From Mayamaea pseudoterrestris (taxonomy: Eukaryota): DNA of 64,000 bases. This document shows, piece after piece, positions 15,709 to 64,000 of this stretch. The DNA lies in assembly GCA_027923505.1 (NCBI GenBank), contig BROI01000002.1, forward strand, positions 1,984,001-2,048,000, written 5' to 3'. Under the pieces are notes generated by a model. That model was given only the letters and a program-made list of their open reading frames with translations, ran no database searches and had not been told where the DNA came from. Within the stretch, counting starts at the first letter, position 1; each line of letters opens with the position of its first letter. A program made the position numbers and the translations under genes.

Positions 15709-15982
15709 TGACCCTTTCGGTATACGTCAAATTCTCGCACGGGCCTTGCAATTATAACTATGTAATGAAGAAAATGATGGTATGGTACTTGTATCACCGT
15801 TATGCACTGTATACGATAGGTACCAGCATTTTTTTGGCGATGTATGTTGTATTCCCTGGCTTACTGTCGCAACGAAAACTACTGCGACAAAGGTGTCTCG
15901 CCAAGCGCGCCATGCCAATAAAATCATTGGATCACCAGTAAATTGCAACACTTCACCTTTCAAGCTCCTCGCTGTTATCATC

Positions 15983-19065: not shown

Positions 19066-19489
19066 GGTTATATTCTTGTCTTTGCTGTATAATGAAGCTT
19101 GTCAAGTTGCTTGTCGTTCGCGTTGTGTTGTGTGAAGGCATGAATGATGAAGGCTCTCGTGCGAACCACTCCTCTGTGATCGATGATCTTTGAAAACCGT
19201 CGTCGGTGCGGTTGAAAGCGATCCATAGGGATTCGGAGAAGGATTCGGCTTCGCATCAAGATTCTTTGCGTTTTCAGCTACTGAATGACCACCAACTTGC
19301 AGTCAAACATGGTTGGCATCAACCATGGGCTCCACGCTATACGTATGGTGGACTTACAAAATGCATTATAGACCCTTTTATGTAGCTGTACTCGTACAAC
19401 TAACGTCCCTGTCTGCTTGTAGACGCTGGAAAGAGCTCCATGCTTTGACAAACATCCCTGTGTTGGTACAGAATGGGTTGTAAATCATT

Positions 19490-22400
19490 CATTAGACAGC
19501 CCAGCAATGCATACCATCTTAAAGCGCAGCCTAGAAAATGATGTTGGCCCCATTCTTGTGAGATTTTGGTGCATACATGGCTTGATGCATAGGCACTTGA
19601 ATGTCAAGGCATCTGCAGGTTGCGACTGGTGAGAAGTCTACTGAGACACATTGCAGTCTACTGAGACACCAGCCAGTCAACTCATCTTGTAGCGCACCTG
19701 AAATAAGGAATGTTAGCACCATTCTTGTATGATTTGAGCATACCGGTACACATGGCTCAAGGTATGGGCATTTGAAAGGCATGGCAGCTGCAGGCTGAGA
19801 CTGGTGACTTGCTAGCAACAATCACATTGCAGTCCTGGAGACACTAGGCAGTCAACCTTTCTTGTACAGCACCTGAATTAAGCATGTTAGCACCATTCTG
19901 GCTTGATTTGGGTGAACACATGGCTCTAAGTGTGGGCGTTTCGGCATCCGCGGGCTGAGACTGGTGACAAGTTGTCACCAAATACATTGCCATCCCCTGA
20001 GACACCAGCCAAGCCTACAATCTTGTAGCGCAGCCTGAATAATGATGTTGGCACCATTCTGGTGTATTTTGGGCACCTACAGGGCTTGCTGTAGGGGCGT
20101 TTGAATGTCACGGCATCTGCGGGCTGAGACTGGTGACAAGTTGTCACCAATCACATTGCAGTCTGCTGAGACACCAGCCAAGCCTACCATCTTGTAGCGC
20201 AGCCTGAATAATGATGTTGGCACCATTCTGGTGTATTTTAGGCACCTACATGGCTTGCTGTGGGGGTGTTTGAAAGTCACGGCATCTGCAGGCTGAGACT
20301 GGTGACAAGTTGTCACCAAATACATTGCCATCCCCTGAGACACCAGCCAAGCCTACCATCTTGTAGCGCTGCCTGAATAATGATGTTGGCACCATTCTGG
20401 TGTATTTTGGGGACCTACAGGGCTTGCTGTAGGGGCGTTTGAATGTCACGGCATCTGCGGGCTGAGACTGGTGACAAGTTGTCACCAATCACATTGCCAT
20501 CTCCTGAGACACCAGCCAAGCCTACCATCTTGTAGCGCAGCCGAAATAATGATGTTGGCACCATTCTGGTGTATTTTGGGCACCTACAGGGCTTGCTGTA
20601 GGGGCGTTTGAATGTCACGGCATCTGCGGGCTGAGACTGGTGACAAGTTGTCACCAAATACATTGCCACCCCCTGAGACACCAGCCAAGCCTACCATCTT
20701 GTAGCGCAGTCTAAATTAGGATGTTGGCACCATTCTGGTGTATTTTGGGCTCCTACAGGGCTTGCTGTAGGGGCGTTTGAATGTCACGGCATCTGCGGGC
20801 TGAGACTGGTGACAAGTTGTCACCAATCACATTGCAGTCTGCTGAGACACCAGCCAAGCCTACCATCTTGTAGCACAGCCTGAATAATGATGTTGGCACC
20901 ATTCTGGTGTATTTTAGGCACCTACATGGCTTGCTGTGGGGGTGTTTGAAAGTCACGGCATCTGCAGGCTGAGACTGGTGACAAGTTGTCACCAAATACA
21001 TTGCCATCCCCTGAGACACCAGCCAAGCCTACCATCTTGTAGCGCAGCCTGAATAACGATGTTGGCACCATTCTGGTGTATTTTGGGCACCTACAGGGCT
21101 TGCTGCAGGGGCATCTGAATGTCACAACATCTGTGGGCTGAGACTGGTGACAAGATGTCACCAAATACATTGCCATCCCTTGAGACACCAGCCAAGCCCA
21201 CCATCTTGTAGCGCAGCCTGAATAATGATGTTGGCACCATTCTGGTGTATTTTAGGCACCTACATGGATTGCGGCGGGGGCGTTTGAAAGTCACGGCATC
21301 TGCGGGCTGAGACTGGTGACAAGTTGTCACCATATACATTGTCATCCCCTGAAACACTAGCCTAGCCTACCATCTTGTAGCGCAGCCGGAAATAGGATGT
21401 TGGCACCATTCTGGTGTATTTTGGGCTCCTACAGGGCTTGCTGTAGGGGCTTTGAAATGTCACGGCATCTGCGGGCTGAGACTGGTGACAAGTTGTCACC
21501 AAATACATTGCCATCCCCTGAGACACCAGCCAAGCCTACCATCTTGTAGCGCTGCCTGAATAATGATGTTGGCACCATTCTGGCGTATTTTGAGGACCTA
21601 CAGGGCTTGCTGTAGGGGCGTTTGAATGTCACGGCATCTGCGGGCTGAGACTGGTGACAAGTTGTCACCAATCACATTAAAGTCTGCTGAGACACCAGCC
21701 AAGCCTACCATCTTGTAGCGCAGCCTGAGGCACCTACATGGATTGCGGTGGGGGCGTTTGAATGTCACAGCATCTGCGGGCTGAGACTGGTGACAAGTTG
21801 TCACCAAATACATTGTCATCCCCTGAAACACTAGCCTAGCCTACCATCTTGTAGCGCAGATGAATAATGATGTTGGCACCATTCTGGTGTATTTTGGGCT
21901 CCTACAGGGCTTGCTGTAGGGGCTTTGAAATGTCACGGCATCTGCGGGCTGAGACTGGTGACAAGTTGTCACCAAATACATTGCCATCCCCTAAGACACC
22001 AGCCAAGCCTACCATCTTGTAGCGCTGCCTGAATAATGATGTTGGCACCATTCTGGTGTATTTTGGGGACCTACAGGGCTTGCTGTAGGGGCGTTTGAAT
22101 GTCACGGCATCTGCGGGCTGAGACTGGTGACAAGTTGTCACCAATCTCATTGCAGTCTGCTGAGACACCAGCCAAGCCTACCATCTTGTAGCGCAGCCTG
22201 AATAACGATGTTGTCACCATTCTGGTGTATTTTAGGCACCTACATGGATTGCGGTGGGGGCGTTTGAATGTCACGGCATCTGCGGGCTGAGACTGGTGAC
22301 AAGTTGTCACCAAATACATTGTCATCCCCTGAAACACTAGCCTAGCCTACCATCTTGTAGCGCAGCCTGAATTAGGATGTTGGCACCATTCTGGTGTATT

Positions 22401-23550
22401 TTGGGCACCTACAGGGCTTGCTGTAGGGGCGTTTGAATGTCACGGCATCTGCGGGCTGAGACTGGTGACAAGTTGTCACCAAATACATTGCCATCCCCTG
22501 AGACACCAGCCAAGCCTACCATCTTGTAGCTCAGCCTGAATAATGATGTTGGCACCATTCTGGTGTATTTTGGGGACCTACAGGGCTTGCTGTAGGGGCA
22601 TTTGAATGTCACGGCATCTGCGGGCTGAGACTGGTGACAAGTTGTCACCCATCACATTGCAGTCTGCTGAGACACCAGCCAAGCCTACCATCTTGTAGCG
22701 CAGCCTGAATAATGATGTTGGCACCATTCTGGTGTATTTTAGGCACCTACATGGCTTGCTGTGGGGGTGTTTGAAAGTCACGGCATCTGCAGGCTGAGAC
22801 TGGTGACAAGTTGTCACCAAATACATTGCCACCCCCTGAGACACCAGCCAAGCCTACCATCTTGTAGCGCAGTCTAAATTAGGATGTTGGCACCATTCTG
22901 GTGTATTTTGGGCTCCTACAGGGCTTGCTGTAGGGGCGTTTGAATGTCACGGCATCTGCGGGCTGAGACTGGTGACAAGTTGTCACCAATCACATTGCCA
23001 TCTCCTGAGACACCAGCCAACGCCACCATCTTGTAGCGCAGCTGAAATAATGATGTTGGCACCATTCTGGTGTATTTTGGGCACTTACAGGGCTTGCTGT
23101 AGGGGCGTTTGAATGTCACGGCATCTGCGGGCTGAGACTGGTGACAAGTAGTCACCAAATACATTGCCATCCCCTGAGACACCAGCCAAGCCTACCATCT
23201 TGTAGCGCAGCCTGAATAAGGATGTTGGCACCATTCTGGTGTATTTTGGGCTCCTACAGGGCTTGCTGTAGGGGCATTTGAATGCACGGCATCTGCGGGC
23301 TGAGACTGGTGACAAGTTGTCACCAAATACATTGCCATCCCCTGAGACACCAGCCAAGCCTACCATCTTGTAGCGCAGCCTGAATAATGACGTTGGCACC
23401 ATTCTGGTGTATTTTGGGCACCTACAGGGCTTGCTGTAGGGGCGTTTGAATGTCACGGCATCTGCGGGTTGAGACTGGTGACAAGTTGTCACCAAATACA
23501 TTGCCATCCCCTGAGACACCAGCCAAGCTAATACCCTTGTAGCGCAGCCT
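19490..23550 (-). repeat. 169-bp satellite, array A (about 21 well-conserved units at 19930-23550 plus degenerate left flank), reverse orientation relative to array B
   Basis: Near-identical units recur every 169 bp (e.g. ORF ends 20077, 20246, 20415); the unit is the reverse complement of the 55-64 kb unit. Confidence 0.97.
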
Positions 23551-23589
23551 GCAAAATATTGTTAGGCATCTGCGGGTGGCATTTCAAAT

Positions 23590-23905
23590 TACAAAAGAAT
23601 GGTGCCAAAATCATATTTAGGCTGCGCTACAAGATGGTATGTATGTCTGGTGTCTATGTAGACTGCAATGTGACTGGACAGATGCCTTGACATTCAGTAT
23701 CCTATAGATCAAGCCATGTAAACACTTAAAACACATAATAAGGGTGACAACATCATAATCCGGGCTGCGCTACAAGATGGTGCGCCTGGTTGGTGTCTCA
23801 ATAGACTGCAGTGTGCCTGGTGACAACTTTTCGCCAGTCTCTACACATCATGGTCGCTATATGAACATTTTGAATGGTTAGACACCTGCTGGCTGAGACT
23901 GGTGT
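23590..23905 (+). repeat. Degenerate, inverted copies of the 169-bp unit at the right edge of array A
   Basis: gaatggtgccaaaatcatatttaggctgcgctacaagatggt (~23597) and ggctgcgctacaagatggtgcgcctggttggtgtctca (~23763) read in array-B orientation; ggctgagactggtg (~23891) reverts. Confidence 0.85.
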
Positions 23906-24062: not shown

Positions 24063-24693
24063 CTAACTTCGCATCGAAATGGGAGTCGAAGACGAAACGC
24101 TGCCAGCTGGACTCGTCTTTTCGCGCGCCGACAAATGCAACGACTCTCCAAAGGTTCGAAAAGCAGCCAGCTGGTCCGCCAAACTATCCGCCAAATCGCC
24201 AGGCTTAGGTTGGGTTGTGCTTTCGAATAGTTGGAGGCGATTGGTAGATTTGAGTTGGTGCGCAAAGGATGCCACGCTAGCAGATTCGTCCAAATTGGCA
24301 TGGTGCGGGTGGCTGGCATGGCCACCAGAAGTTGATCCTCCCGACTTGTTGTGAGTGTAGTTGCTAGACGTTGCATCAACGGCAAAAGGCATGTCTTCCG
24401 ATAGATAATCTTCCGTTTGCGGCGCCAATGCCGTCGAAAAGAGCATGCTGTGTGCGCTAGCACCACCAAGGCGAAAATCGAGTGGTAATAAAGAGTTAGC
24501 ATTTGCTCCAAGTGAGAGTGATGCCATCATGGATCCCTGCACGTGACGATGCGTTTGAAATGGACTCGAATGTAGAAGATCTAAAGAGGTAATAGGCGGA
24601 ACGACTTTCTCGTAGTCATATTTATCGCCCGTCAGGGTCTTTGCATGCTTTTGCTCCGGAGTTCTTGACACTGTTTGACCATCAGCATGAGTA

Positions 24694-24726
<33 letters not shown>

Positions 24727-25374
24727 AGAAACGCCACTGGCCGCGGCTGAAAGGGTGGCGTGCTCATGAGATTGCGCGGAGGCATGAGAAACGGCGGGGA
24801 CGCCGTGCCTCCTAAAAAAGCTTCACCAGGTGGCGTCGACGCTAGTGGAGTCGCTCCTGATAGCCAAGGACTATGACGATGCTGGGGACTAGCCGAAATG
24901 GGACGCATCCCACTTGACGTTGCCTCAGCAGCAGAGACGTCGGAAGGTGATCGCTCAAACGTCGTCGGTTTCGTCTGCGAGGGATGAATCGCTTGCCATG
25001 GTATATGGTTATTGTAGGCATATCCGTATTCGCCTTGCTTGGACGTAGGGCCAGCTGCAGTAGTGGTAGTCGCATTTGTCGGTGTATTCGCAGCCTTGCT
25101 TGCTTGCTCGATCAAATGAGGAGGCATTTGATGCAAAGCTGCTCGTCGCATTTCGTTTTGCTCCCTTCCTTCATCGTTCATCATCATCATGAGCGAAAGT
25201 CCACTCAAAACTCGTTCGGGAGGATTCACTGGAACTGTCTGCGATGAGACGGGCGAAGAAGATGCATGCGCACCAAGCACCGTGTGGCGGCGCTGAAGCA
25301 ATGCGCGTTGCTGGTCTTGTTGATGCTGTTGCGGCTGTCCCTGTTCCTGCACAGGGTAACTTTGCCGGTGTACT

Positions 25375-25409
<35 letters not shown>

Positions 25410-26357
25410 GTTACTCGCAACTTGATGATGACGGGACGGATCAAAGGTCGTCCCAAATCGAGACGGCGGATAGTTGGCCATGCCTCCATACTCTGGCGCC
25501 GACTGCGGCACCATATGCTTCTTGCTCGCAGTTTCATCCTCCAGATTGGTCGTATTGCGGCGCTGCAACTCTCGATGCTTTCTCTCGTCCACTCGTTGAT
25601 GAATTGGAATGGACGCAGTCGCTTGACGAAACGAAACAACATTCGCAGTGGATCTGGTAGGTAGGAGGGCATCCACCGTTCGCTGTGGTGCGTGGTAAAC
25701 CCTCCAATTCAATTCTCCATAGGGCGTCACGACACTGCTCGACGGCTCCTGCATCCGAAAACCTTGCGTCTGCACCAAGTCGGAAACATCATCCAACGCA
25801 TCGCTCACCATGTAGAGTGAGAAACCCAGCGACGCCGCTTGACTGCGTTGCGAAAAGACTTGCGATGGCAGCAAGCACGTGCTGCAGCAAAGCGTCCGCA
25901 ACCAAATAACGATACGCTTGCATACCAGTCGCAGCTGCGCAATTGGATCCTGCGTCACTGTTCCTTCCCGCGTCAAGAAGCGGTCCATGCCGCAGACGGA
26001 ATACTCCAAACACCAGCGCTCCAGTAGTTCGCGGCGCTGAGAATCGTGGGGATAGTAAACATCCAATCGCAGCGGAACATGCAAGGCGCCGCCGCCAGCC
26101 TTGGTAGTTTGTAGTATGTTGCGGACTCCGGATAGTTCTGGTAGCTGCAGATTGAATCGACTCGTTGTATTGTTTGCAGTATTATTGTTCGTTTCAATCG
26201 AGGGACATCGAGAGGTCACAATGATTTCGCATGCCTTGGCAATGGCTTCAAAGACAACTTGATCGCATTTTGTTCGCGGTCCGTTATCGGATCGGTACTG
26301 CTGCTGTTGCTGCATATGATTGTTATGATTCGTTTGATGTTGAGGGTACGAGTACAT
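24063..26357 (-). CDS. ATG13: Autophagy-related protein 13 (N-terminal HORMA domain, disordered C-terminus with polyQ)
   Basis: HORMA-type motifs KCDQVVFEAIAKACEIIVTSR, RFNL, PLRLDVY, LLERWCLEY, KRIVIWLRTL..LLPS, VTPYGEL; C-terminal EDMPFA. Confidence 0.85.
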
Positions 26358-26465
26358 GGCTTTGCCGCTGTTGGAGTGACGGTTGATTCGTCGATCGTCA
26401 TGGTGACTCTCACGAATTCTGATCGCGGGGAATCAAAAGTCAAGCGATTTTGAAAAGACAAAACA

Positions 26466-26700
26466 GTTATCACTGGCACCCGTTTCATACTATAGCCTCA
26501 TGTCGTAGTTTTCACTGGCACCCGTTTTATACTATTGCCTTTTAACGGAGTTTTCACTGGCACTCGTTTCGTAATATTGCTTAATGACGTAGCTTTCACT
26601 GGCACTCGTTTCATACTTAAGCGTGATGACGTAGTTTTCACTGGCACCCGTTTCATACTATTGCCTGATGACGTGGCCTTACCTAGCACTCGTTTCCATA
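26466..26700. repeat. 42-bp minisatellite, about 5.5 copies, in a divergent intergenic region
   Basis: Unit approximately gttttcactggcacccgtttcatactattgcctgatgacgta, repeated head to tail. Confidence 0.92.
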
Positions 26701-48495: not shown

Positions 48496-48991
48496 GAGTG
48501 AAGATGTTGTAAATGATGATGAGGAAGTGGAAGCTTTTCGGGGAGCAAAAGCGAGAGATGAGTCTGTCAAAGAGAGCGATTGATGGTGAGTTTATCAAAG
48601 AAGGGTTCGATTTTGCTCAAGACGACAAAATCGACGTCGAATCTCGAAATGTACGACGAAATTCAAGGATTTGGATCTTTCACCAACCGATCTTTCGATG
48701 TCGAATCTGAAGAAAATGGTCATCTACCTATTGATTTACGCACCAATGGAACTCAGTAATACGGCGAATAGCGTCGTCTTGAGAAGCATCATGGTACTTG
48801 TTACGAAGGATCTTCAAGACTTGTCTGACGAATGAACGAGTCGATTTCGATTGATGCGCAGATGCGCGCAGGATCGCTGACGACTCGCATTGTGGCGCGC
48901 TGGCTTTGGCGTCGTAGCGGTTTTAAAGCTTGTTGCGGTGCGACATCGACATGCTGGACTCGATCCGTCACAAAAGCACATAAACTTCACC

Positions 48992-50608
48992 ATGGCCGCC
49001 GAATCATCTGTCATTTCTAGCTCAAAAGCGCTACAAGTGCTAGCAACCACTTCAGTTGTCATCACCATTCTCTTCTTTTGCTATTCGTCGAGAATATATT
49101 ACGAAATCTCGCCAAATGATGGCCCTTCCTCCGCCTTTCCACCCCACCTCTATCATCAATCTTCGCCATTCGCATTAGAACGTGCATGTATACCCAAGCG
49201 GCTGCATTTAGCACAACGATCCAATTTAATGAAGAATGAAGATGACGATTCTTATAGCGTTAACATGACAATTTCCTTTCAATTGGACTTTGATGCCTGT
49301 CGAAACGTTGCTCCCATCGTCGTCTACGGTCGAGGAGTGTGGATTGACGGTACCATTCTTGTTCGCGCGGACGAGCGAAAGCAGTTCAACTACACGTCCG
49401 ACAAGAGCCAAGGCCTTTACAAAAGCGACTGGATTTATCATGTGGAGCTTCCTCATCTGCAGGCTGGTCGAGTCGCGTATTGGTATCAGATTCTTGTCAA
49501 GGAGCGAATAAACATAGAGACAGACGGGGCTACTTTGGAGCAGAGACGCCTTCGGAATCCATCACTGCCACAACAAAGAATTGCGAAATCGAATTGGTAT
49601 ACTTTTTTCACACCTCCATTGCCTCACATGCCAACGAAACTGGCGCTGGTCGGCGACCTTGGACAAACCATTAACTCGACCAAAACCATGCACCACATTT
49701 GGCGCGGCACGAGTGGTCCGGGCGTGCCAATCTCGCACGTGTTGATTGCCGGCGACATGTCGTATGCCGATACGGATCCGATACGCTGGAATTCGTGGTT
49801 TGATCTCATGGATCCGCTCCTTCGAAGCACGCCACTGCACGTTGCGGCAGGGAATCATGAAGTTGAATGCGACACGTCCAATCTGCAACCCTTTGTTCCC
49901 TACGAAAACTACTTTTACAATCCGAATCGCATTCAGGATGCTTACATTGAAGCAGTTACCAAGGAATACAAGGAAACTCTTTGGCGTCGATCCTGCGCCA
50001 CACCCTCCGAGTTTACCGGAACGTATGACTACGGCAATTCATTCTACTCCTACCAACACGGTTTGGCGCACATTATCGTGCTCAACTCGTACAGCAACAC
50101 ATCCAAGGGTTCCGTGCAGTACGATTGGTTGGAGCATGAGCTCCGTTTCAGCATTAACCGCAGTCTGACGCCGTGGGTGATTGTTCCCTTTCACTCGCCG
50201 CTTTACACAACGTTCGTGGGTCACGTCAACGAGAAGCAGTCGTTAAACATGAAACAGGCAATGGAACCGCTGTTATGTAAATACGGAGTCAACTTGGTGA
50301 TTTCCGGGCACGATCATGGTTACATGCGGACGCATTCCTTGACGCAAGACGGTCAAGTCGATCCGTCTGGAGAGTCTCCCGTCTATTTGACACTGGGAGC
50401 CGGCGGCAACCGGGAGCATCATGCACCTGGCTACCGAAACCAAGAGCAGGAGGAGTGGGTGGCAGTGCGGTCGCTGGTAGACTATGGGTACGGGAGTTTG
50501 CTGCTCCGCAACGCGACGCATGCATCATTCACGTGGGTACGAAACGGAGTGGACGCTGGCGGCGTACACGATCTAGTATGGCTTGAAAATAAGCATTACG
50601 TGCCATGA
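48992..50608 (+). CDS. Purple acid phosphatase family metallophosphoesterase with N-terminal anchor
   Basis: Metal-ligand motifs GDLG, GDMSY, GNHE, GHDH.Y.R, plus H.PLY and GAGGN.E; TM segment near the N-terminus. Confidence 0.92.
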   Translation: MAAESSVISSSKALQVLATTSVVITILFFCYSSRIYYEISPNDGPSSAFPPHLYHQSSPFALERACIPKRLHLAQRSNLMKNEDDDSYSVNMTISFQLDFDACRNVAPIVVYGRGVWIDGTILVRADERKQFNYTSDKSQGLYKSDWIYHVELPHLQAGRVAYWYQILVKERINIETDGATLEQRRLRNPSLPQQRIAKSNWYTFFTPPLPHMPTKLALVGDLGQTINSTKTMHHIWRGTSGPGVPISHVLIAGDMSYADTDPIRWNSWFDLMDPLLRSTPLHVAAGNHEVECDTSNLQPFVPYENYFYNPNRIQDAYIEAVTKEYKETLWRRSCATPSEFTGTYDYGNSFYSYQHGLAHIIVLNSYSNTSKGSVQYDWLEHELRFSINRSLTPWVIVPFHSPLYTTFVGHVNEKQSLNMKQAMEPLLCKYGVNLVISGHDHGYMRTHSLTQDGQVDPSGESPVYLTLGAGGNREHHAPGYRNQEQEEWVAVRSLVDYGYGSLLLRNATHASFTWVRNGVDAGGVHDLVWLENKHYVP

Positions 50609-50854: not shown

Positions 50855-51634
50855 TCAAGTAAACGCTTCGGACACGTCTTCATCCGTCAAGTCAATATAC
50901 TCAATCTCCTTATCCTTCTCGGGATGCTTCATCTTTTTGAACTGGGCTGTACAATCGCCGGGTGGAGCTGGGTGCTTCATGCGATGAAGCATCCACACTG
51001 GCGGCTTAGGAAGAACACCAACATGCACCAATCCAAGAGCCGTGCAGTAGTTCAGCGTAACTTTGTTGATAAATGCGCCGCGACCAAATGAGATGGTAAA
51101 ACCACTGTTGTTGTTGCTTTGACGACTGGTAATGACAGTTGAGCCTTGTTTGGAGCGTACAAACTTTTTCTTGAGTGCGTCTGTCACGGCGTCACTCGCA
51201 TGGTCAAGCGACGTTTGAAAAGATGTAGAATAGTCCGAACAGTTGGAGCCGGAGTTGTTTGTTAAAATCGCTTGATATAGCAACACCTCCACTTTACCCA
51301 ACTCAGTGTTGCGGCTACCTTTTGTAAAACGTGGGCGTGTGAATTGCAGCGCCGTCGTTTTGACCTCGCCATTGATTCGACTGGGTATGCCCGCATAAAT
51401 AATGGCTCCGTCGTAAAATAGATGACTTTGTACACGGCGAAGGCGTGTACCATCTACTACGCACTTGCTGATGATACAGAAGTCTCCTTCCCATCCAATG
51501 CGCCGAATGGCAATAAAGTAATCGGCGTCTGGCTCTGCTTCGACGTAGATCTTGCCGTTTTTTTCAAATTCCTTCACTGGCAACTTGGAGTCGGCGTAGA
51601 CAAGCTGCACTTCAACTCCGTGACGAACAACCAT
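50855..51634 (-). CDS. Unknown family paralogue 4 (displaced, opposite strand)
   Basis: MVVRHGVEVQLVYADSKLPVKEFEKNGKIYVEAEPDADYFIAIRR...LNYCTALGLVHVGVLPKP...IEYIDLTDEDVSEAFT. Confidence 0.85.
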   Translation of the reverse strand: MVVRHGVEVQLVYADSKLPVKEFEKNGKIYVEAEPDADYFIAIRRIGWEGDFCIISKCVVDGTRLRRVQSHLFYDGAIIYAGIPSRINGEVKTTALQFTRPRFTKGSRNTELGKVEVLLYQAILTNNSGSNCSDYSTSFQTSLDHASDAVTDALKKKFVRSKQGSTVITSRQSNNNSGFTISFGRGAFINKVTLNYCTALGLVHVGVLPKPPVWMLHRMKHPAPPGDCTAQFKKMKHPEKDKEIEYIDLTDEDVSEAFT

Positions 51635-51799
51635 AGTGACGAGATAGAGTTGCGATTGTCGATGCAAACAAGACGAGGACTGCTTCGGTTCTTCGAAAAT
51701 GGTGCGGTCATTCATGGCGCGGGGAATTTCCGGTCACGAAGCAGAAAAAAAGAATTTGTTCTTTTCAATCATGTCTGCCCACCCATACGGTGAATGCTA

Positions 51800-52850
51800 G
51801 TACACGTGGGCTGGGAATGATTGTTATGCACCAATCTTACCGCATATGTGTCCCCAAGGATAGCCAGAGCAGAATTCATGGAACAAGAATATTGGGAGTA
51901 GTCGTTGAAGGCCTTACACTGTAGCACTGTGGAGCTAGTTACTGTGTGGACCTCTGCCCTCCTAAACAACTGATGTTACATGTGAGCCAGGAATGATTGT
52001 TATGCACCAATCTCACCGCATACAAGTTCCCAAGGAAGCCAGAACAGAATTCATGGAACAAGACTTTTGGGGGTAGTCCTTAAAGGCCACGCATGTTGCA
52101 CCATGGAGCTGGTTACTGTGTGGATCTTTGCCCTCCCAAACAACTGGTGCTACACGTGAGCTGGGAATGATTGTTATGCACCAATCTCACCCAATACGTG
52201 TCCCCAAAGATAGCCAGAACAAAATTCATGGAACAAGACTATTGGAGGTAGTCGTTGAAGGCCACACACTGTAGCACTATATAGCTGGTTACTGTGCGGA
52301 TTGTTGCCTCCCAAACAACTGATGCTACACGTGAGCTGGGAATGATTGTTATGCCCCAATCTCACCGCATATGGGTCCCCAAGGATAGCCAGAGCAGAAT
52401 TCATGGAACAAGACTATTGGGGGTAGTCCTTGAAGGCCACACACTGTAGCACCGTGTAGCTGGTTACTGTGCGGATCTTTGCCCTCCCAAACAACTGATG
52501 CTACACATGAGCTGGGAATGATTGTTATGCACCAATCTTACCGCATATGTGTCTCCAAGGATAGCAAGAGCAGAATTCATGGAACAAGAATATTGGGGGT
52601 AGTCGTTGAAGGCCTTACACTGTAGCACTGCAAAGCTAGTTACTGTGTGGACCTCTGCCCTCCTAAACAACTGATGTTACATGTGAGCCAGGAATGATTG
52701 TTATGCACCAATCTCACTGCATAGTTCCCAAGGAAGCCAGAACAGAATTCATGGAACAAGACTTTTGGGGGTAGTCCTTAAAGGCCATGCATGTTGCACC
52801 ATGGAGCTGGTTACTGTGTGGATCTTTGCCCTCCCAAACAACTGATGCTC
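51800..52850. repeat. ~176-bp satellite, 6 units
   Basis: gaatgattgttatg recurs at 51815, 51991, 52165, 52340, 52516, 52692. Confidence 0.95.
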
Positions 52851-55030
52851 CAGCTTTCCCAATACTTGAGCTTGCCAGGATTGTTTGGTTTTCTAGGCCT
52901 CATTGATAGTTTGGCCCATGGTGGCTATGTTGGTAATTGATGGGGATGCCCAGCGGACCTGGTGGCGTGGTGTGGTGTGGCGACGTACGGGATACTTAGC
53001 TATGTGGAAGCTAGCATGTCTACTCCCAAAACTTGAAGGATTTGCATGTCCGCCAAGGTTGTAGAGGATGATTGACCTTACCAAAAGCTTTTTGAAAGGT
53101 GGGATAGCTTCACATGATGGGGATGGCCAAAGTTTTGCGGGTGCTGCCACTGCTGCTGTGTGACATACAGTCGCACAAAATACAGCGTATCTACTTCTGT
53201 TTTGCCATGAACACATGAGTTTCCCAGCACTGTATGAGTCATAGTAGCTCACGTATACCTTGTTGAAAGGTGGCATTGGCTAAAAGGACAATCAGAGCCA
53301 TAGTTTGATTGGTTAGCATTCATAGACTGCGCTGTTGGTCTATTTGGCCCATCACAGCTACTCCCACAGCTTTCCCAATACTTGAGCTTGCCATGTTTGT
53401 ATGGTTTTGTAGGCCTCATCGATAGTTTGGCCCATGGTGGCTATGTTGGTAAGTGGTGGGATGCCCGGCGGACCTGGTGGCGTGGTGTGGTGTGGCGACG
53501 TACGGGATACTTAGCTATGTGGAAGCTAGCATGTCTACTCCCAAAACTTGAAGGATTTGCATGTCCGCCAAGGTTGTAGAGGATGATTGGCCTTACCAAA
53601 AGCTTTTTGAAAGGTGGGAATGCTTCACATGATGGTGATGGCCAAAGTTCTGTGGATGCTGTCGCTGCTGCTGCGTGACATACAGTCACATGGAATACAG
53701 CGTATCTACTCCTGTTTTGCCAGGAACACATGAGTTGTCCAACATTGAATATGTCATAGTACCTCACGTTTATCTTGTCAAGAGGTGGAAATGGTTAAAA
53801 GGACAATCAGAGCCATAGTTTGATTGGTTTGGATTCATAGACTGCGCTGTTGTTCTCTTTGGCCCATCTACTCCCACAGCTTTCCCAAAACTTGAGCTTG
53901 CCAGGATTGTTTGGTTTTCTAGGCCTCATTGATGTTTTGGCCCATGGTGGCAATGTTTATTATTGATGGGATGCCCAGTGGTCCTGGTGGCGTGGTTTGG
54001 TGTGGCGACGTACGGGATACTTAGCTATGTGGAAGCTAGCATGTCTACTCCCAAAACTTGAAGGATTTGCATGACGGCCAAGGTTGTAGAGGATGATCGA
54101 CCATACAAAAAGCTTTTTGAAAGGTGGGAATGCTTCACATGATGGGGGTGGCCAAAGTTTTGCGGCTGCTCTTGCTGCTGCTGTGTGACATACAGTCGCA
54201 CAAAGTACAGCGTATCTACTCTTGTTTTGCCATGAACACATGAGTTGTCCAACATTGAATATGTCATAGTACCTCACGTTTATCTTGTCAAGAGGTGGAA
54301 ATGGTTAAAAGGACAATCAGAGCCATAGTTTGATTGGTTTGGATTCATAGACTGCGCTGTTGTTCTCTTTGGCCCATCTACTCCCACAGCTTTCCCAATA
54401 CTTGAGCTTGCCAGTTTTGTTTGGTTTTGTTGGCCTCATTGATAGTTTGGCCCATGGTGGCTATAATGATATTTGATGGGGATGCCCAGCTGACCTGGTG
54501 GCGTGGTGTGGTGTGGCGACGTACGGGATACTTAGCTATGTGGAAGCTTAGCATGTCTACTACCAAAACTTGAAGGATTTGCATGACCGCCAAGTTGTAG
54601 AGGATGATTGATCTTACCAAAAGCTTTTTGAAAGGTGGGAATGCTTCAAATGATGGAGATGGCCAAAGTTTTGCGGGTGCTGCCACTGCTGCTGTGACAT
54701 ACAATCACATGGAATGCAGCATATGTACTCCTGTTTTGCCAGGAACACATGAGTTGTCCAACATTGAATGTGTCATAGTAGCTCACGTTTACCTTGTCAA
54801 AAGGTGGAAATGGTTAAAAGGACAATCAGAGCCATAGTTTGATTGGTTTGGATTCATAGACTGCGCTCTTGTTCTCTTTGGCCCATCTACTCCCACAGCT
54901 TTCCCAATACTTGAGCTTGCCAGGTTTGTTTGGTTTTGTAGGCCTCATTAATAACATGGTCAATGGTAGCAATGATGGTAATTGATGGGGATGCCCAGCA
55001 CACCTGGTGGCATGGTGTGGTGTGGCTATA
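52851..55030. repeat. ~510-bp tandem repeat, 4 full units plus a partial fifth
   Basis: cagctttcccaa(t/a)acttgagcttgcc recurs at about 52851, 53367, 53877, 54387, 54896. Confidence 0.95.
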
Positions 55031-58000
55031 ATATGGTAGGCATGGCGGGTGTCTCAGGGAATGGCAATGGTTTTGGTGACAACTTCTCACCAGTCTCATC
55101 CCGCAGATGCCATGACATTCAAACACCCCTACAGCAAGCCCTGTAGGTGCCCAAAGTACACCAGAATGGTGCCAACATCATTATTCAGTCTGCGCTACAA
55201 GATGGTAGGCTTGGCGGGTGTCTCAGGGGATGGCAATGTATTTGGTGACAACTTGTCACCAGTCTCAGCCCGCAGATGTAACGCCCCTACAGCAAAATCT
55301 GAAGGTGCCCAAAATACACCAGAATGGAGCCAACGTCATTATTCAGGCTGCACTACAAGATGGTAGGCTTGGCTGGTGTCTCAGGGGATGGCAATGTATT
55401 TGGTGACAACTTATCACCAGTCTCAGCCCGCAGATGCCGTGACATTCAAATGCCCCTACAGCAAGCCCTGTAGGTGCCCAAAATACACCAGAATGGTGCC
55501 AACATCATTATTCAGGCTGCGCTACAAGATGGTAGGCTTGGCTGGTGTCTCAGGGGATGGCAAGGTATTTGGTGACAACTTGTCACCAGTCTCAGCCTGC
55601 AGATGCCATGACATTCAAACGCCCCTACAGCAAGATCTGTAGGTGCCCAAAATACACCAGAATGGTGCCAACATCATTATTTAGGCTGCGCTACAAGATG
55701 ATAGGCTTGACTGGTGTCTCAGGGGATGGCAATGTATTTGGTGACAACTTGTCACCAGTCTCAGCCCGCAGATGCCGTGACATTCAAACGCCCCTACAGC
55801 AAGATCTGTAGGTGCCCAAAATACACCAGAATGGTGCCAACATCATTGTTCAGGATTCGCTACAAGATGGTAGGCTTGACTGGTGTCTCAGGGGATGGCA
55901 ATGTATTTGGTGACAACTTGTCACCAGTCTCAGCCCGCAGATGCCGTGACATTCAAACGCCCCTACAGCAAGCCCTGTAGGTGCCCAAAATACACCAGAA
56001 TGGTGCCAACATCATTATTCAGGCTGCGCTACAAGATGGTAGGCTTGGCTGGTGTCTCAGGGGATGGCAATGTATTTGGTGACAACTTGTCACCAGTCTC
56101 AGCCTGCAGATGCCGTGACATTCAAACGCCCCTACAGCAAGATCTGTAGGTGCCCAAAATACACCAGAATGGTGCCAACATCATTGTTCAGGATTCGCTA
56201 CAAGATGGTAGGCTTGGCTGGTGTCTCAGGGGATGGCAATGTATTTGGTGACAACTTGTCACCAGTCATTATTCAGGCTGCGCTACAAGATGGTAGGCTT
56301 GGCTGGTGTCTCAGGGGATGGCAATGTATTTCGTGACAACTTGTCACCAGTCTCAGCCCGCAGATGTTGTGACATTCAAACGCACCTACAGCAAAATCTG
56401 AAGGTGCCCAAAATACACCAGAATGGAGCCAACATCATTATTCAGTCTGCGCTACAAGATGGTAGGCTTGGCTGGTGTCTCAGGGGATGGCAATGTATTT
56501 GGTGACAACTTATCACCAGTCTCAGCCCGCAGATGCCGTGACATTCAAACGCCCCTACAGCAAGCCCTGTAGGTGCCCAAAATACACCAGAATGGTGCCA
56601 ACATCATTATTCAGGCTGCGCTACAAGATGGTAGGCTTGGCTGGTGTCTCAGGGGATGGCAATGTATTTCGTGACAACTTGTCACCAGTCTCAGCCCGCA
56701 GATGTTGTGACATTCAAACGCCCCTACAGCAAAATCTGAAGGTGCTCAAAATACACCAGAATGGAGCCAACATCATTATTCAGTCTGCGCTATAAGATGG
56801 TAGGCTTGGCTGGTGTCTCAGGGGATGGCAATGTATTTGGTGACAACTTATCACCAGTCTCAGCCCGCAGATGCCGTGACATTCAAACGCCCCTAAAGCA
56901 AGCCCTGTAGGTGCCCACAATAAACCAGAATGGGGCCAACATCATTGTTCAGGCTGCGCTACAAGATGGTAGGCTTGGCTGGTGTCTCAGGGGATGGCAA
57001 TGTATTTGGTGACAACTTGTCACCAGTCTCAGCCCGCAGATGCCGTGACATTCAAACGCCCCTACAGCAAGCCCTGTAGGTGCCCAAAATACACCTGAAT
57101 GCTGATAAAATCATTATTCAGGCTGCGCTACAAGATGGTAGGCTTGGCTGGTGTCTCAGGGGATGGCAATGTATTTGGTGACAACTTGTCACCAGTCTCA
57201 GCCCGCAGATGCCGTGACATTCAAACGCCCCTACAGCAAGCCCTGTAGGTGCCCAAAATACACCTGAATGCTGACAACGTCATTATTCTGTCTGCGCTAC
57301 AAGATGGTAGGCTTGGCTGGTGTCTCAGGGGATGGCAATGTATTTGGTGACAACTTGTCACCAGTCTCAGCCCGCAGATGCCATGACATTCAAACGCCCC
57401 TACAGCAAGCCCTGTAGGTGCCCAAAATACACGAGAATGGTGCCAACATCATTATTCAGGCTGCACTACAAGATGGTGGGCTTGGCTGGTGTCTCAGGGG
57501 ATGGCAATGTATTTGGTGACAACTTGTCACCAGTCTCAGCCCGCAGATGCCGTGACATTCAAACGCCCCTGCAGCAAGCCCTGTAGGTGCCCAAAATACA
57601 CCAGAATGGTACCAACATCATTGTTCAGGCTGCGCTACAAGATGGTAGGCTTGGCTGGTGTCTCAGGGGATGGCAATGTATTTGGTGACAACTTGTCACC
57701 AGTCTCAGCCCGCAGATGCCGTGACATTCAAACACACCTACAGCAAGCCCTGTAGGTGCCCAAAATACACCAGAATGGTGCCAACATCATTATTCAGGCT
57801 GCGCTACAAGATGGTAGGCTTGGCTGGTGTCTCAGGGGATGGCAAGGTATTTGGTGACAACTTGTCACCAGTCTCAGCCTGCAGATGTTGTGACATTCAA
57901 ACGCCCCTACAGCAAAATCTGAAGGTGCCCAAAATACACCAGAAATGGAGCCAACATCATTATTCAGGCTGCGCTACAAGATGGTAGGCTTGGCTGGTGT

Positions 58001-61000
58001 CTCAGGGGATGGCAATGTATTTGGTGACAACTTGTCACCAGTCTCAGCCCGCGGATGCCATGACATTCAAACGCCCCTACAGCAAGATCTGTAGGTGCCC
58101 AAAATACACCAGAATGGTGCCAACATCATTATGCAGACTGCGCTACAAGATGGTAGGCTTGGCTGGTGTCTCAGGGGATGGCAATGTATTTGATGACAAC
58201 TTGTCACCAGTCTCAGCCCGCAGATGCCGTGACATTCAAACGCCCCTACAGCAAGATCTGTAGGTGCCCAAAATACACCAGAATGGTGCCAACATCATTA
58301 TTCAGGCTGCGCTACAAGATGGTAGGCTTGGCGGGTGTCTCAGGGGATGGCAATGTATTTGGTGACAACTTGTCACCAGTCTCAGCCCGCAGATGCCATG
58401 ACATTCAAACACCCCTGCAGCAAGCCCTGTACATGCCCAAAATACACCAGAATGGTGCCAACATCATTGTTTAGGCTGCGCTACAAGATGGTAGGCTTGA
58501 CTGGTGTCTCAGGGGATGGCAATGTATTTGGTGACAACTTGTCACCAGTCTCAGCTTGCAGATGCCGTGACATTCAAACGCCCCTACAGCAAGCCCAGTA
58601 GGTGCCCAAAATACACATGAATCCTAACAACACCATTATTCAGGCTGCGCTACAAGATGGTAGGCTTGGCTGGTGTCTCAGGGGATGGGAATGTATTTGG
58701 TGACAACTTGTCACCAGTCTCAGCCTGCAGATGCCGTGACATTCAAATGCCCCTACAGCAAGCCCTGTAGGTGCCCAAAATACACCAGAATGGTGCCAAC
58801 ATATTACACAGGCTGCGCTACAAGATGGTAGGCTTGACTGTTGTCTCAGGGGATGGCAATGTATTTGGTGACAGCATGTCACCAGTCTCAGCCCGCAGAT
58901 GCCATGACATTCAAACGCCCCTACAGCAAGCCCTGTAGGTGCCCAAAATATACCAGAATGGTGCCTACATCATTATTCAGGCTGCGCTACAAGATAGTTG
59001 GCTTGGCTGGTGTCTCAAAGGATGGCAATGTATTTGGTGACAACTTGTCACCAGTCTCAGCCCGCAGATGCTGTGACATTCAAATGCCCCCTACAGCAAG
59101 CCCTGTAGGTGCCCAAAATACACCAGAATGGTGCCAACATCATTATTCAGGCTGCGCTACAAGATGGTAGGCTTGGCTGGTGTCTCAGGGGATGGCAATG
59201 TATTTGGTGACAACTTGTCACCAGTCTCAGCCCGCAGATGCCGTGACATTCAAATGCCCCTGCAGCAAGCCCTGTAGGTGCCCAAAATACTCCAGAATGG
59301 TACCAACATCATTATTCAGGCTGCGCTACAAGATGGTAGGCTTGGCTGGTGTCTCAGGGGATGGCAATGTATTTGGTGACAACTTGTCACCAGTCTCAGC
59401 CCGCAGATGCCGTGACATTCAAACGCCCCTACAGCAAGCCCTGTAGGTGCCCAAAATACACCAGAATGGTGCCAACATAAATATTCAGGCTGCGCTACAA
59501 GATGGTATGCTTGACTGGTGTCTCAGGGGATGGCAATGTATTTGGTGACAACTTGTCACCAGTCTCAGCCCGCAGATGCCGTGACATTCAAACGCCCCTA
59601 CAGCAAGCCCTGTAGGTGCCCAAAATATACCAGAATGGTGCCAACATCATTATTCAGGCTGCGCTGCAAGATGGTAGGCTTGGCTGGTGTCTCAGGGGAT
59701 GGCAATGTATTTGGTGACAACTTGTCACCAGTCTCAGCCCGCAGATGCCGTGACATTCAAACGCCCCTACAGCAAGCCCTGTAGGTGCCCAAAATATACC
59801 AGAATGGTGCCAACATCATTATTCAGGCTGAGCTACAAGATGGTAGGCTTGGCTGGTGTCTCGGGGGATGGCAATGTATTTGGTGACAACTTGTCACCAG
59901 TCTCAGCCCGCAGATGCCATGACATTCAAACGCCCCTACAGCAAGCCCTGTAGGTGCCCAAAATACACCAGAATGGTACCAACATCATTATTCAGGCTGC
60001 GCTACAAGATGGTAGGCTTGGCTGGTGTCTCAGGGGATGGCAATGTATTTGGTGACAACTTGTCACCAGTCTCAGCCCGCAGATGCCGTGACATTCAAAC
60101 GCCCCTACAGCAAGATCTGTAGGTGCCCAAAATACAACAGAATGGTGCCAACATCATTTTTTAGACTGCGCTACAAGATGGTAGGCTTGGCTGGTGTCTC
60201 AGGGGATGGCAATGTATTTGGTGACAACTTGTCACCAGTCTCAGCCCGCAGATGCCGTGACATTCAAACGCCCCTACAGCAAGCCCTGTAGGTGCCCAAA
60301 ATACACCAGAATGGTGCCAACATCATTATTCAGGCTGCGCTACAAGATGGTAGGCTTGGCTGGTGTCTCAGTGGATGGCAATGTATTTGGTGACAACTTG
60401 TCACCAGTCTCAGCCCACAGATGCCGTGACATTTAAACGCCCCTACAGCAAGATCTGTAGGTGCCCAAAATACACCAGAATATTGCCAACATCATTATTC
60501 AGGCTGCGCTACAAGATGGTAGTCTTGGCTGGTGTCTCAGGGGATGGCAATGTATTTGGTGACAACTTGTCACCAGACTCAGCCCGCAGATGCCGTGACA
60601 TTCAAACGCCCCTACAGCAAGCCCTGTAGGTGCCCAAAATACACCTGAATGCTGACAACGTCATTATTCTGTCTGCGCTACAAGATGGTAGGCTTGGCTG
60701 GTGTCTCAGGGGATGGCAATGTATTTGGTGACAACTTGTCACCAGTCTCAGCCCGCAGATGCCGTGACATTCAAACGCCCCTACAGCAAGATCTGTAGGT
60801 GCCCAAAATACAACAGAATGGTGCCAACATCATTTTTTAGACTGCGCTACAAGATGGTAGGCTTGGCTGGTGTCTCAGGGGATGGCAATGTATTTGGTGA
60901 CAACTTGTCACCAGTCTCAGCCCGCAGATGCCGTGACATTCAAACGCCCCTACAGCAAGCCCTGTAGGTGCCCAAAATACACCAGAATGGTGCCAACATC

Positions 61001-64000
61001 ATTATTCAGGCTGCGCTACAAGATGGTAGGCTTGGCTGGTGTCTCAGGGGATGGCAATGTATTTGGTGACAACTTGTCACCAGTCTCAGCCCACAGATGC
61101 CGTGACATTTAAACGCCCCTACAGCAAGATCTGTAGGTGCCCAAAATACACCAGAATGGTGCCAACATCATTATTCAGGCTGCGCTACAAGATGGTAGTC
61201 TTGGCTGGTGTCTCAGGGGATGGCAATGTATTTGGTGACAACTTGTCACCAGTCTCAGCCCGCAGATGCCGTGACATTCAAACGCCCCTACAGCAAGCCC
61301 TGTAGGTGCCCAAAATACACCAGAATGGTGCCAACATCATTATTCAGGCTGCGCTACAAGATGGTAGGCTTGGCTGGTGTCTCAGTGGATGGCAATGTAT
61401 TTGGTGACAACTTGTCACCAGTCTCAGCCCACAGATGCCGTGACATTTAAACGCCCCTACAGCAAGATCTGTAGGTGCCCAAAATACACCAGAATGGTGC
61501 CAACATCATTATTCAGGCTGCGATACAAGATGGTAGTCTTGGCTGGTGTCTCAGGGGATGGCAATGTATTTGGTGACAACTTGTCACCAGACTCAGCCCG
61601 CAGATGCCGTGACATTCAAACGCCCCTACAGCAAGCCCTGTAGGTGCCCAAAATACACCTGAATGCTGACAACGTCATTATTCTGTCTGCGCTACAAGAT
61701 GGTAGGCTTGGCTGGTGTCTCAGGGGATGGCAATGTATTTGGTGACAACTTGTCACCAGTCTCAGCCCGCAGATGCCGTGACATTCAAACGCCCCTACAG
61801 CAAGATCTGTAGGTGCCCAAAATACAACAGAATGGTGCCAACATCATTTTTTAGACTGCGCTACAAGATGGTAGGCTTGGCTGGTGTCTCAGGGGATGGC
61901 AATGTATTTGGTGACAACTTGTCACCAGTCTCAGCCCGCAGATGCCGTGACATTCAAATGCCCCTACAGCAAGCCCTGTAGGTGCCCAAAATACACCAGA
62001 ATGGTGCCAACATCATTATTCAGGCTGCGCTACAAGATGGTAGGCTTGGCTGGTGTCTCAGTGGATGGCAATGTATTTGGTGACAACTTGTCACCAGTCT
62101 CAGCCCACAGATGCCGTGACATTTAAACGCCCCTACAGCAAGATCTGTAGGTGCCCAAAATACACCAGAATGGTGCCAACATCATTATTCAGGCTGCGCT
62201 ACAAGATGGTAGTCTTGGCTGGTGTCTCAGGGGATGGCAATGTATTTGGTGACAACTTGTCACCAGACTCAGCCCGCAGATGCCGTGACATTCAAACGCC
62301 CCTACAGCAAGCCCTGTAGGTGCCCAAAATACACCTGAATGCTGACAACGTCATTATTCTGTCTGCGCTACAAGATGGTAGGCTTGGCTGGTGTCTCAGG
62401 GGATGGCAATGTATTTGGTGACATCTTGTCACCAGTCTCAGCCCGCAGATGCCATGACATTCAAATGCCCCTACAGCAAGCCCTGTAGGTGCCCAAAATA
62501 CACCAGAATGGTGCCAACATCATTATTCTGGCTGCGCTACAAGATGGTAGGCTTGGCTGGTGTCTCAGGGGATGGCAATGTATTTGGTGACAACTTGTCA
62601 CCAGTCTCAGCCCGCAGATGCCGTGACATTCAAATGCCCCTACAGCAAGATCTGTAGGTGCCCAAAATACACCAGAATGGTGCCAACATCATTATTCTGG
62701 CTGCGCTACAAGATGGTAGGCTTGGCTGGTGTCTCAGGGGATGGCAATGTATTTGGTGACAACTTGTCACCAGTCTCAGCCCGCAGATGCCGTGACATTC
62801 AAACGCCCCTACAGCAAAATCTGTAGGTGCCCAAAATACTCCAGAATGGTGCCAACATCATTATTCAGGCTGCGCTACAAGATGGTAGGCTTGGCTGGTG
62901 TCTCAGGGGATGGCAATGTATTTGGTGACAACTTGTCACCAGTCTCAGCCCGCAGATGCCATGACATTCAAACGCCCCTACAGCAAGCCCTGTAGGTGCC
63001 CAAAATACACCAGAATGGTACCAACATCATTATTCAAACTGCGCTACAAGATGGTAGGCTTGGCTGGTGTCTCAGGGGATGGCAATGTATTTGGTGACAA
63101 CTTGTCACCAGTCTCAGCCCGCAGATGCCGTGACATTCAAACGCCCCTACAGCAAGCCCTGTAAGTGCCCAAAATACACCAGAATGGTGCCAACATCATT
63201 ATTCAAGCTGCGCTACAAGATGGTAGGCTTGGCTGGTGTCTCAGGGGATGGCAATGTATTTGGTGACAACTTGTCACCAGTCTCAGCCCGCAGATGCCGC
63301 GACATTCAAACGCCCCTACAGCAAGCCCTGTAAGTGCCCAAAATACACCAGAATGGTGCCAACATCATTATTCAGGCTGCGCTACAAGATGGTAGTCTTG
63401 ACTGGTGTTTCAGGGGATTGCAATGTATTTGGTGACAACTTGTCACCAGGCTCAGCCCGCTGATGCTGTGACATTCAAACGCCCCTACAGCAAGCCCTGT
63501 AGGTGCCCTAAATACACCAGAATGGTGCCAACATCATTGTTCAGTTTACGCTACAAGTTGGTAGGCTTGGCTGGTGTCTCAGGGGATGGCAATGTATTTG
63601 GTGACAACTTGTCACCAGTCTCAGCCTGCAGATGCCGTGACATTCAAACGCCCCTACAGCAAGCCCTGTAGGTGCCCAAAATACACCAGAATGGTGCCAA
63701 CAACATTATTCAGGCTGCGCTACAAGATGGTAGGCTTGGCTGGTGTCTCAGGGGATGGCAATGTATTTGGTGACAACTTGTCACCAGTCTCAGCCCGCAG
63801 ATGCCATGACATTCAAATGCCCCTACAGCAAGCCCTGTAGGTGCCCAAAATACACCAGAATGGAGCCAACGTCATTATTCAGTCTGCGCTACAAGATGGT
63901 AGGCTTGGCTGGTGTCTCAGGGGATGGCAATGTATTTGGTGACAACTTGTCACCAGTCTCAGCCCGCAGATGCCGTGACATTCAAACGCCCCTACAGCAA
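55030..64000 (+). repeat. 169-bp satellite, array B (about 53 units, runs off the window end)
   Basis: Period of 169 bp (ORF starts 55376, 55545, 55714...63405, 63574) with high unit identity. Confidence 0.98.

Follow-up and report, generated by a model that had tools for sequence, protein, structure and literature searches.

The satellite array and its island

The window analysed here is a stretch of 64,000 nucleotides from the genome of the diatom Mayamaea pseudoterrestris (assembly GCA_027923505.1, contig BROI01000002.1, positions 1,984,001 to 2,048,000), the right end of which is filled by a tandem array of a 169-bp satellite. The assembly consists of 41 contigs in 30.6 Mb, here labelled C1-C41, and the window, C2:1984001-2048000, lies in a contig of 2.776 Mb. 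It was extended by 80 kb of downstream DNA, positions in which are given in window-equivalent coordinates. An initial annotation made from the letters alone had taken the host for a probable diatom, and the named relatives of one window protein, among the 120 listed of 250, are indeed all diatoms (Epithemia, Fistulifera, Seminavis, Nitzschia and others), with the identical entry carrying the label Mayamaea pseudoterrestris.

Using Tandem Repeats Finder (TRF) and by cutting the sequence into units, we placed the array on the forward strand at 55025..64000, continuing to window-equivalent 70786. The whole array, from the window and the downstream DNA together, is finite and short, with 94 units in 15,762 bp, and 86 of these units are exactly 169 bp in size with a mean pairwise identity of 94.8%. 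TRF on 56266-64000 alone yielded 45.8 copies with a period of 169 and 94% matches. The GC content is 0.50 and the lowest value for any 100-bp segment is 44%, with none at or below 32%. The description of at least 9 kb of homogeneous, GC-balanced 169-bp units in the initial annotation was thus accurate apart from the start, which is corrected to 55025, while the 176-bp, 510-bp and second 169-bp arrays described below had been missed.

Unit-to-unit comparisons showed dips at lags of 4, 6 and 38 units, with local higher-order repeats of 4 and 6 units. The lag-38 signal corresponds to an exact tandem duplication of 6,295 bp on the forward strand (58194-64488 = 64489-70783), which in a letter-for-letter comparison had zero mismatches, was out of register and lacked microhomology at the junction. 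Exact repeats in other sampled arrays did not exceed 1.1-1.4 kb, compared to 6,295 bp here, and the duplication may be either very young or an artefact of the assembly, so that the array is truly either 15.8 kb or about 9.5 kb long. The 9 kb noted initially lies inside the first copy and holds in both cases. Since the 169-bp repeat was also found in contigs from an independent sequencing study (run X2), the family itself is no assembly artefact.

The least variable part of the monomer is a 19-bp dyad with 9-bp arms and a 1-base centre that occurs once per unit (for example at 59374..59392). Excluding CpG and subfamily sites, its variability was 6.2 events per site versus 12.6 elsewhere in the unit, a difference seen in 0 of 10,000 permutations, and the 9-base arms arose in 0 of 100 shuffles. 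A second hairpin of the unit, with 7-bp arms and a 6-base loop (for example at 59428..59447), is not conserved. No Rfam matches were obtained within the window and the unit folded no better than shuffled sequences (z -0.71), which speaks against a structured RNA or a ribosomal DNA or transfer RNA repeat. Open reading frames (ORFs) inside the arrays, such as 23085-23561, were dismissed as by-products of the 169-bp period, and an apparent preference for breakpoints at unit position 127-128 was discarded because half of the cases were alignment ends in old, diverged copies.

The array is part of a gene-free island of about 19 kb (C2:2.036-2.055 Mb) that contains no Copia insertion. From left to right, the island consists of a 176-bp satellite in 6.0 copies (51801..52849), a 510-bp satellite in 4.3 copies (52851..55026), the 169-bp array and, directly after it, another 2.6 copies of the 176-bp satellite (window-equivalent 70783-71239), all on the forward strand and with genes on both sides. 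The second stretch of the 176-bp satellite is in register with the first: the array halts at a unit end and restarts at a unit start, and the 510+169 block therefore reads as an insertion into it. The 510-bp unit shows weak internal three-part similarity and reads as an old trimer of about 170 bp, and no alignment was obtained between it and the 169-bp unit.

To the left of the island are a purple acid phosphatase-like ORF (48881-50608, forward strand) and an ORF of unassigned function that ends 70 bp from the island (50855-51733, reverse strand). The latter is one of 4-5 paralogs of about 270-350 amino acids, others being located at 13326-16739 in the window and at window-equivalent ~132.7 kb; the paralog tested had no Pfam match. 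A second 169-bp array, located at 19501..23557 on the reverse strand, contains 24 units with a mean identity of 93.5% to the reference unit and has a diverged left edge, as called by TRF. It is faced by an inverted and diverged remnant of the same family (about 70-80% identity; 23585..23845, forward strand). This array is flanked by an NmrA-like gene on one side (18331-19101) and an ATG13-like gene on the other (24063..26432, reverse strand).

A library of nucleosome-length families

TRF and clustering identified ten families with units longer than 150 bp in the sampled sequences, with periods of 168, 169, 172, 172+180/181, 173, 174, 176, 347/348, 352 and 506-510 bp. All ten periods fall within 1-3 x 165-182 bp, for which a log-uniform null over 100-600 bp gives a probability of 0.16 each; this value is rough since the bounds were chosen with the data in view and a distant common ancestry of the families is possible. 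Alignment z values for the 45 family pairs were mostly below 3 with a maximum of 4.2. Internal similarity was two-part in the 347-bp unit (best z 17) and three-part in the 510-bp unit (best z 7), in both cases with many offsets tried. The 9-base core of the dyad is likewise found at the centre of the long dyads in the 347-bp family and is present in the 181-bp subfamily, a post hoc observation, and it was not found in the remaining seven families. Repeats of 8 and 11 bp also occurred in the samples, including an 11-bp satellite at a contig start (C18:66-1500) and a CpG-rich 8-bp satellite wedged between two opposed 169-bp arrays (C1:2718751-2719685).

We also examined how the arrays are joined. 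The 21 between-array junctions differed in phase, with an overlap or a filler of a few bases, and only local duplicates recurred. None of 9 window junctions was found again in the 865 kb of sequence fetched. Yet the 169-, 176- and 510-bp families occur together again at C2:1838 kb, and the 169-bp family with the 176-bp family at C5:1102 kb and C26:100 kb. Co-occurrence of the same families with new junctions points to piecewise capture into existing islands rather than to a fixed mobile unit. The clean break of the 176-bp array at a unit boundary and the repeated company of the three families could also be accounted for if the tandem units were internal to a mobile element that moves them (Helitron/Helentron, miniature inverted-repeat transposable element or long terminal repeat (LTR) element), an alternative raised in the initial annotation. 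We consider this very unlikely, because the borders of the sampled islands have no terminal sequence in common, each locus has its own junctions, and the arrays extend to tens to hundreds of kb. Copia elements were the sole non-satellite neighbours to recur, and these are inserted within the satellites. A search by eye for Helitron-type ends of the 510+169 block found a fit at one end only, in either direction, and was rejected.

Genome-wide distribution

To quantify the family in the assembly, we used searches for exact motif patterns. A 29-base motif of the 169-bp unit had 4,333 exact matches and the 17-base core of the dyad had 7,912, while controls yielded 0 for both. Of 963 sampled unit-equivalents, 837 contained this core. 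This gives an estimate of about 9,100 units, corresponding to 1.54 Mb or 5.0% of the assembly (floor 4.4%). The family, detected on at least 30 of the 41 contigs, comprises two subfamilies with 16 differences over the 169 positions; the units in the window are of type A.

Sites were mapped with rare-variant motifs, the lists of which covered 65 of 65, 32 of 32, 100 of 175 and 100 of 320 matches, and with a second family (23 of 23), small contigs being under-sampled by the variant matches. On the nine largest contigs (C1-C9; 14.46 Mb) we counted at least 43 or at least 38 satellite sites with merging distances of 25 kb and 50 kb, respectively, some of which contain only the second family or a single match. 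Of these, 37 or 32 are interstitial (>50 kb from a contig end), and the mean spacing is 225 or 258 kb. At least six separate 169-bp sites are located on C2 (256, 1838, 2004, 2039, 2428-2436 and 2674-2687 kb) and at least six to seven on C1. The islands range in size from a few kb to about 35 kb, arrays larger than that of the window being located at C1:606-640 kb, at C11:846-877 kb and on C30, and the island at C1:947-959 kb has genes on both sides, like both islands in the window.

The distribution is uneven. Blind probing of C2 0-1.8 Mb at eighteen places of 8 kb each revealed one further island (256-258 kb) and one lone 168-bp unit, so the site map is a lower bound, yet this part of C2 is satellite-poor. 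Between 0.26 and 1.84 Mb on C2, no array was found in four variant searches and 15 of the blind probes, which contained only the lone unit. Similarly, no array was mapped on C5 before 1.10 Mb, and the apparent gaps between sites reach 1.1-1.6 Mb.

The largest block is C30 (303 kb), of which 116.5 kb were sampled; satellite made up 89% of this sample and is present at both ends of the contig. The block contains two families, mostly the other 169-bp subfamily, carries Copia insertions and changes strand about halfway along. It is the foremost candidate for a block of centromeric, knob-like or accessory-chromosome type. Tandem arrays were present at 29 of 80 sampled contig ends, 12 of them of the 169-bp family; the start of C40, sampled separately, was not satellite. 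Inner probes of three other contigs contained mostly genes and were satellite in 0 of 4 (C39), 1 of 5 (C33) and 0 of 4 (C31) cases, or 1 of 13 overall. The array-ended contigs suggest that satellite DNA is under-assembled.

The contig ends also bear on a subtelomeric origin, the other alternative of the initial annotation. The only telomere tract of at least 10 units in the assembly, with 27 units at the start of C11 (C11:1-1500), is joined directly to the 172+180-bp satellite, and many contigs end in arrays. However, the window array lies between genes, at distances of 2.04 Mb and 0.72 Mb from the two ends of its contig, and the check for adjoining telomere repeats proposed at the outset found no tract in the next 73 kb; the majority of the mapped sites are interstitial as well. 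That this array is a subtelomeric satellite thus seems highly improbable, unless the contig is mis-joined at this place.

Sequencing runs from two studies (X1 and X2) contained both the repeat and its unique flank, with few differences in X2. Summed over one unit, the depth of the contigs amounted to 9-16 million in X1 and 1.3-2.3 million in X2, and on the unique flank to 129-217 and about 33, respectively. Short overlapping contigs were counted up to 31 times, and the summed depth is therefore no copy number; the derived range of roughly 2,000 to 100,000 copies brackets the assembly count. Two runs of X1's study with other organism labels (X4 and X6) were considered as evidence of conservation and rejected as cross-talk, having about 1/1000 of the depth and an uncovered unique flank. 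Soil and rhizosphere runs with small shares of the repeat did not enter the analysis, and no match was obtained in a single scan of metagenome contigs for a 24-base motif. Among the runs listed with the repeat there was no RNA run, which is uninformative as to its expression.

CpG decay, probable methylation and Copia elements

The ratio of observed to expected CpG was 0.33 in the array, compared to 1.09-1.10 in three flanks, and 0.09-0.41 across the consensus units of all ten families. In 349 type-A units from 30 regions, with four CpGs per unit, transitions at CpG sites amounted to 0.099 (C>T) and 0.079 (G>A) per copy. The corresponding values for the remaining C and G sites were 0.0125 and 0.0158, and transitions at CpA, CpC and CpT were not raised. 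Judging from these mutation scars, the arrays are probably CG-methylated heterochromatin. The genome has three methyltransferase loci, one of which is a DNMT5-like gene at C2:17120-20446. The first part of this gene was read, and its product matched one solved structure, PDB 7r76 (E 3e-39), which we take to be fungal Dnmt5.

In Phaeodactylum, DNMT5 is described as making CG methylation at isolated repeat islands (PMC9998398). The resemblance extends to the isolated position of the repeats in ordinary DNA, the Copia elements, the CG context and the DNMT5-like gene. The islands described there are transposons, however, and the word satellite is absent from the main text of that paper.

Most of the non-satellite DNA within the islands is Ty1/Copia. 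It includes a young family with near-identical LTRs of about 330 bp, many members of which are nested in satellites or in each other; one solo LTR was found inside the 168-bp satellite, and one Copia insertion has a 5-base target duplication. In a sample of the 30 best loci (41 matches scored of 130 candidates), the LTR abutted satellite at 13, representing 12 separate insertions, and about 10 were located in other Copia DNA. The flanks of another 7 had no assignment, four of them being CpG-poor. The binomial probability of the association with satellites is 6e-7 if satellites make up 8% of the targets and 0.03 if they make up 25%, and the pile-up fits targeting and mere tolerance alike.

The centromere question

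The initial annotation had proposed a centromeric or heterochromatic array, on the expectation of one large array per chromosome. The heterochromatic part is upheld by the data above; the single array is not, given the number of sites on C1 and C2. The genome does encode a CenH3-type histone H3 variant of about 128 amino acids in two exons (C2:~130.1-130.6 kb). It has a divergent N-terminal tail and a loop 1 that is one residue longer, and at the hallmark positions of CenH3 it shows the replacements Q to A, F to W and T to A. The best solved matches are ordinary H3, so the CenH3 assignment rests on these hallmarks.

In Phaeodactylum, centromeres are reported to be 2.4-5.6 kb, low in GC and mostly unique, with one CENP-A peak on 23 of the 25 scaffolds with hits (bioRxiv 10.1101/096016), and the proposed centromeres of Fistulifera solaris have 36-42% GC and are described as free of highly repeated elements (bioRxiv 10.1101/2021.11.10.468027). 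M. pseudoterrestris resembles these species in being a pennate diatom with a CenH3 gene, and the array resembles their centromeres in its intergenic position. It differs from the 1.4-5.6 kb, low-GC, non-repetitive regions of the two species in its GC content, which has a minimum of 44%, and in having about 9,100 copies in the genome, and the dissimilarity to Phaeodactylum centromeres noted at the outset is thereby borne out.

A homogeneous, gene-free island of 19 kb with higher-order structure could conceivably be the single regional centromere of its chromosome. This is a reading to which we give very little credence, as C2 has at least five further sites, some of similar size, larger arrays occur elsewhere, the consensus is identical to that of arrays on C1, C30 and C41, and the island has neither a Copia insertion nor a low-GC segment. 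The window array is accordingly unlikely to be the sole centromere of its chromosome.

The alpha satellite of primates and CEN178 of Arabidopsis also have nucleosome-length units, in one megabase array per chromosome, and a 10-bp A/T periodicity is common in such satellites. The 169-bp family is like them, as judged by description, in unit length, head-to-tail order, local higher-order repeats, the dyad and retrotransposon insertions, and unlike them in its GC content of 50% and its 16-kb array, of which there are many per contig. The homogeneous, head-to-tail, nucleosome-length monomer expected of a monocentric satellite is present, while a single dominant array per chromosome is not.

The family might nevertheless be a monocentric centromeric satellite, if CENH3 occupied one long C30-like block per chromosome and the window array were an outlier. 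The megablock on C30 would then have counterparts mostly lost in assembly gaps, in line with the 29 array-bearing contig ends, and the CenH3-type gene, the conserved dyad and the young Copia LTRs abutting satellites would fit; a Copia family marks the centromeres of the oomycete P. sojae (PMC7082073). We consider this rather unlikely. Only one megablock is seen, the inner probes of C39, C33 and C31 being mostly genes, and it mixes two families with a majority of the other subfamily. With a single telomere assembled, many of the contigs with satellite ends may be subtelomeric. The diatom centromeres on record are short, low in GC and non-repetitive, and the Copia enrichment is weak (p 0.03) if satellites represent a quarter of the tolerated sites. 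The largest blocks of the family may have a centromeric role.

A more radical alternative is that the chromosomes are holocentric or polycentric and repeat-based, every island, including the one in the window, being a CENH3 unit recognised via the dyad. The model for this is Tyba of Rhynchospora, with arrays of about 18-20 kb located about 375-400 kb apart (PMC10954556), a unit of 172 bp and a spacing that ranges from 247 kb to 1.4 Mb across the genus (bioRxiv 10.64898/2026.01.17.700053). The 169-bp family has a comparable unit, a variant of about 180 bp in the library, arrays of about 20 kb in islands of up to ~35 kb, gene-rich surroundings and retrotransposon insertions, and a mean spacing of a few hundred kb (225-260 kb, with gaps of 1.1-1.6 Mb); moreover, the dyad core is common to two other families. 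But Tyba is one family with demonstrated CENH3 binding along whole chromosomes, whereas here ten families, one of them dominant, form patchworks with uneven cover (C2 0.26-1.84 Mb; C5 before 1.10 Mb). Furthermore, in Tribolium this layout goes with no centromere function, single CENP-A peaks are the rule on the Phaeodactylum scaffolds with hits (23 of 25), and no holocentric diatom was found in the titles and abstract openings searched. We regard this reading as improbable. If true, it would represent the first holocentric stramenopile in the literature searched and would mean that the type of centromere has changed within the pennate diatoms.

Probable dispersed heterochromatin islands

The closest parallel is provided by the satellites Cast1-Cast9 of Tribolium castaneum, which have units of about 170 and 340 bp, make up about 4% of the genome, are located in gene-rich arms apart from the centromeric satellite and are found in extrachromosomal circular DNA (PMC4675708; PMC11610590). 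Both systems comprise several unrelated families of about 170 or 340 bp that amount to a few percent of the genome, with near-identical consensus sequences between contigs. In both, arrays of one to about 100 kb lie among genes on many chromosomes with irregular ends, and there is exchange from one chromosome to another. Differences are that one family here makes up 5% of a 30-Mb genome, that families are nested in patchwork islands, that CpG decay suggests CG methylation, and that no separate centromeric satellite is available for comparison. Uneven cover, many families and monocentric relatives favour a Tribolium-type over a Tyba-type layout, although sequence alone cannot separate the two. 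We therefore favour, with moderate confidence, dispersed CG-methylated heterochromatin islands between genes, similar to the Cast satellites and not organised as one array per chromosome.

Under this explanation, the window array would be an ordinary outpost of the commonest member of a nucleosome-length satellite library that forms many small CG-methylated islands between genes and at least one very large block. DNMT5 would keep the arrays methylated and deamination would erode their CpGs, while units of 1-3 x ~170 bp would be retained through their fit to the nucleosome repeat. Arrays may grow by unequal exchange or local duplication and spread as pieces, via circular DNA or break repair, which land preferentially in existing islands and so generate patchworks with unrelated junctions. 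The conserved dyad could be a protein-binding or cruciform site.

Several observations weigh against this explanation. The methylation is deduced from mutation scars at only 4 CpG sites per unit, and the adjacent Copia elements are not CpG-depleted (1.1-1.3), which fits their youth and gives no support. The dyad has about half the variability of the remaining unit, a hint of selection, which a purely passive model does not need. No family showed a 10-bp A/T periodicity (p 0.16-0.89; p = 0.89 for the 169-bp unit), and the argument for nucleosome phasing hence rests on unit length alone. Finally, contigs may be mis-joined at arrays and sites with a single variant match may be tiny.

Dispersed libraries of nucleosome-length satellites are of a known kind, and this diatom case is undescribed in the literature searched. 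The search, which covered titles and abstract openings and few subscription papers, found no diatom satellite family, and the words satellite, centromer-, tandem and heterochromatin are absent from the main text of the species paper (PMC9724779), the supplements of which could hold repeat tables. Satellites of other stramenopiles, likened here by description only, are PpSat1 and PpSat2 of Phytophthora parasitica (PMC7290008) and a satellite of about 98 bp in Ectocarpus that is almost only subtelomeric (bioRxiv 10.1101/2024.05.11.593484). Diatom genomes have been described with short, non-repetitive centromeres and methylated transposon islands, and the 169-bp library shows a satellite-rich organisation. 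It provides a small system for asking whether the size of satellite units is governed by nucleosome length, and satellite arrays explain assembly breaks. The location of CENH3 would tell the three models of the centromere apart, and one of them would be truly surprising.

Other features of the window

Short arrays with a 42-bp unit are located just outside genes at 26465-26696 in the window and at window-equivalent 94130-94267, the two being related, and a short array of the same period is present at C39:73570-73944. The ORF at 2493-5051 resembles, as judged by eye, a membrane sensor histidine kinase with a receiver domain.

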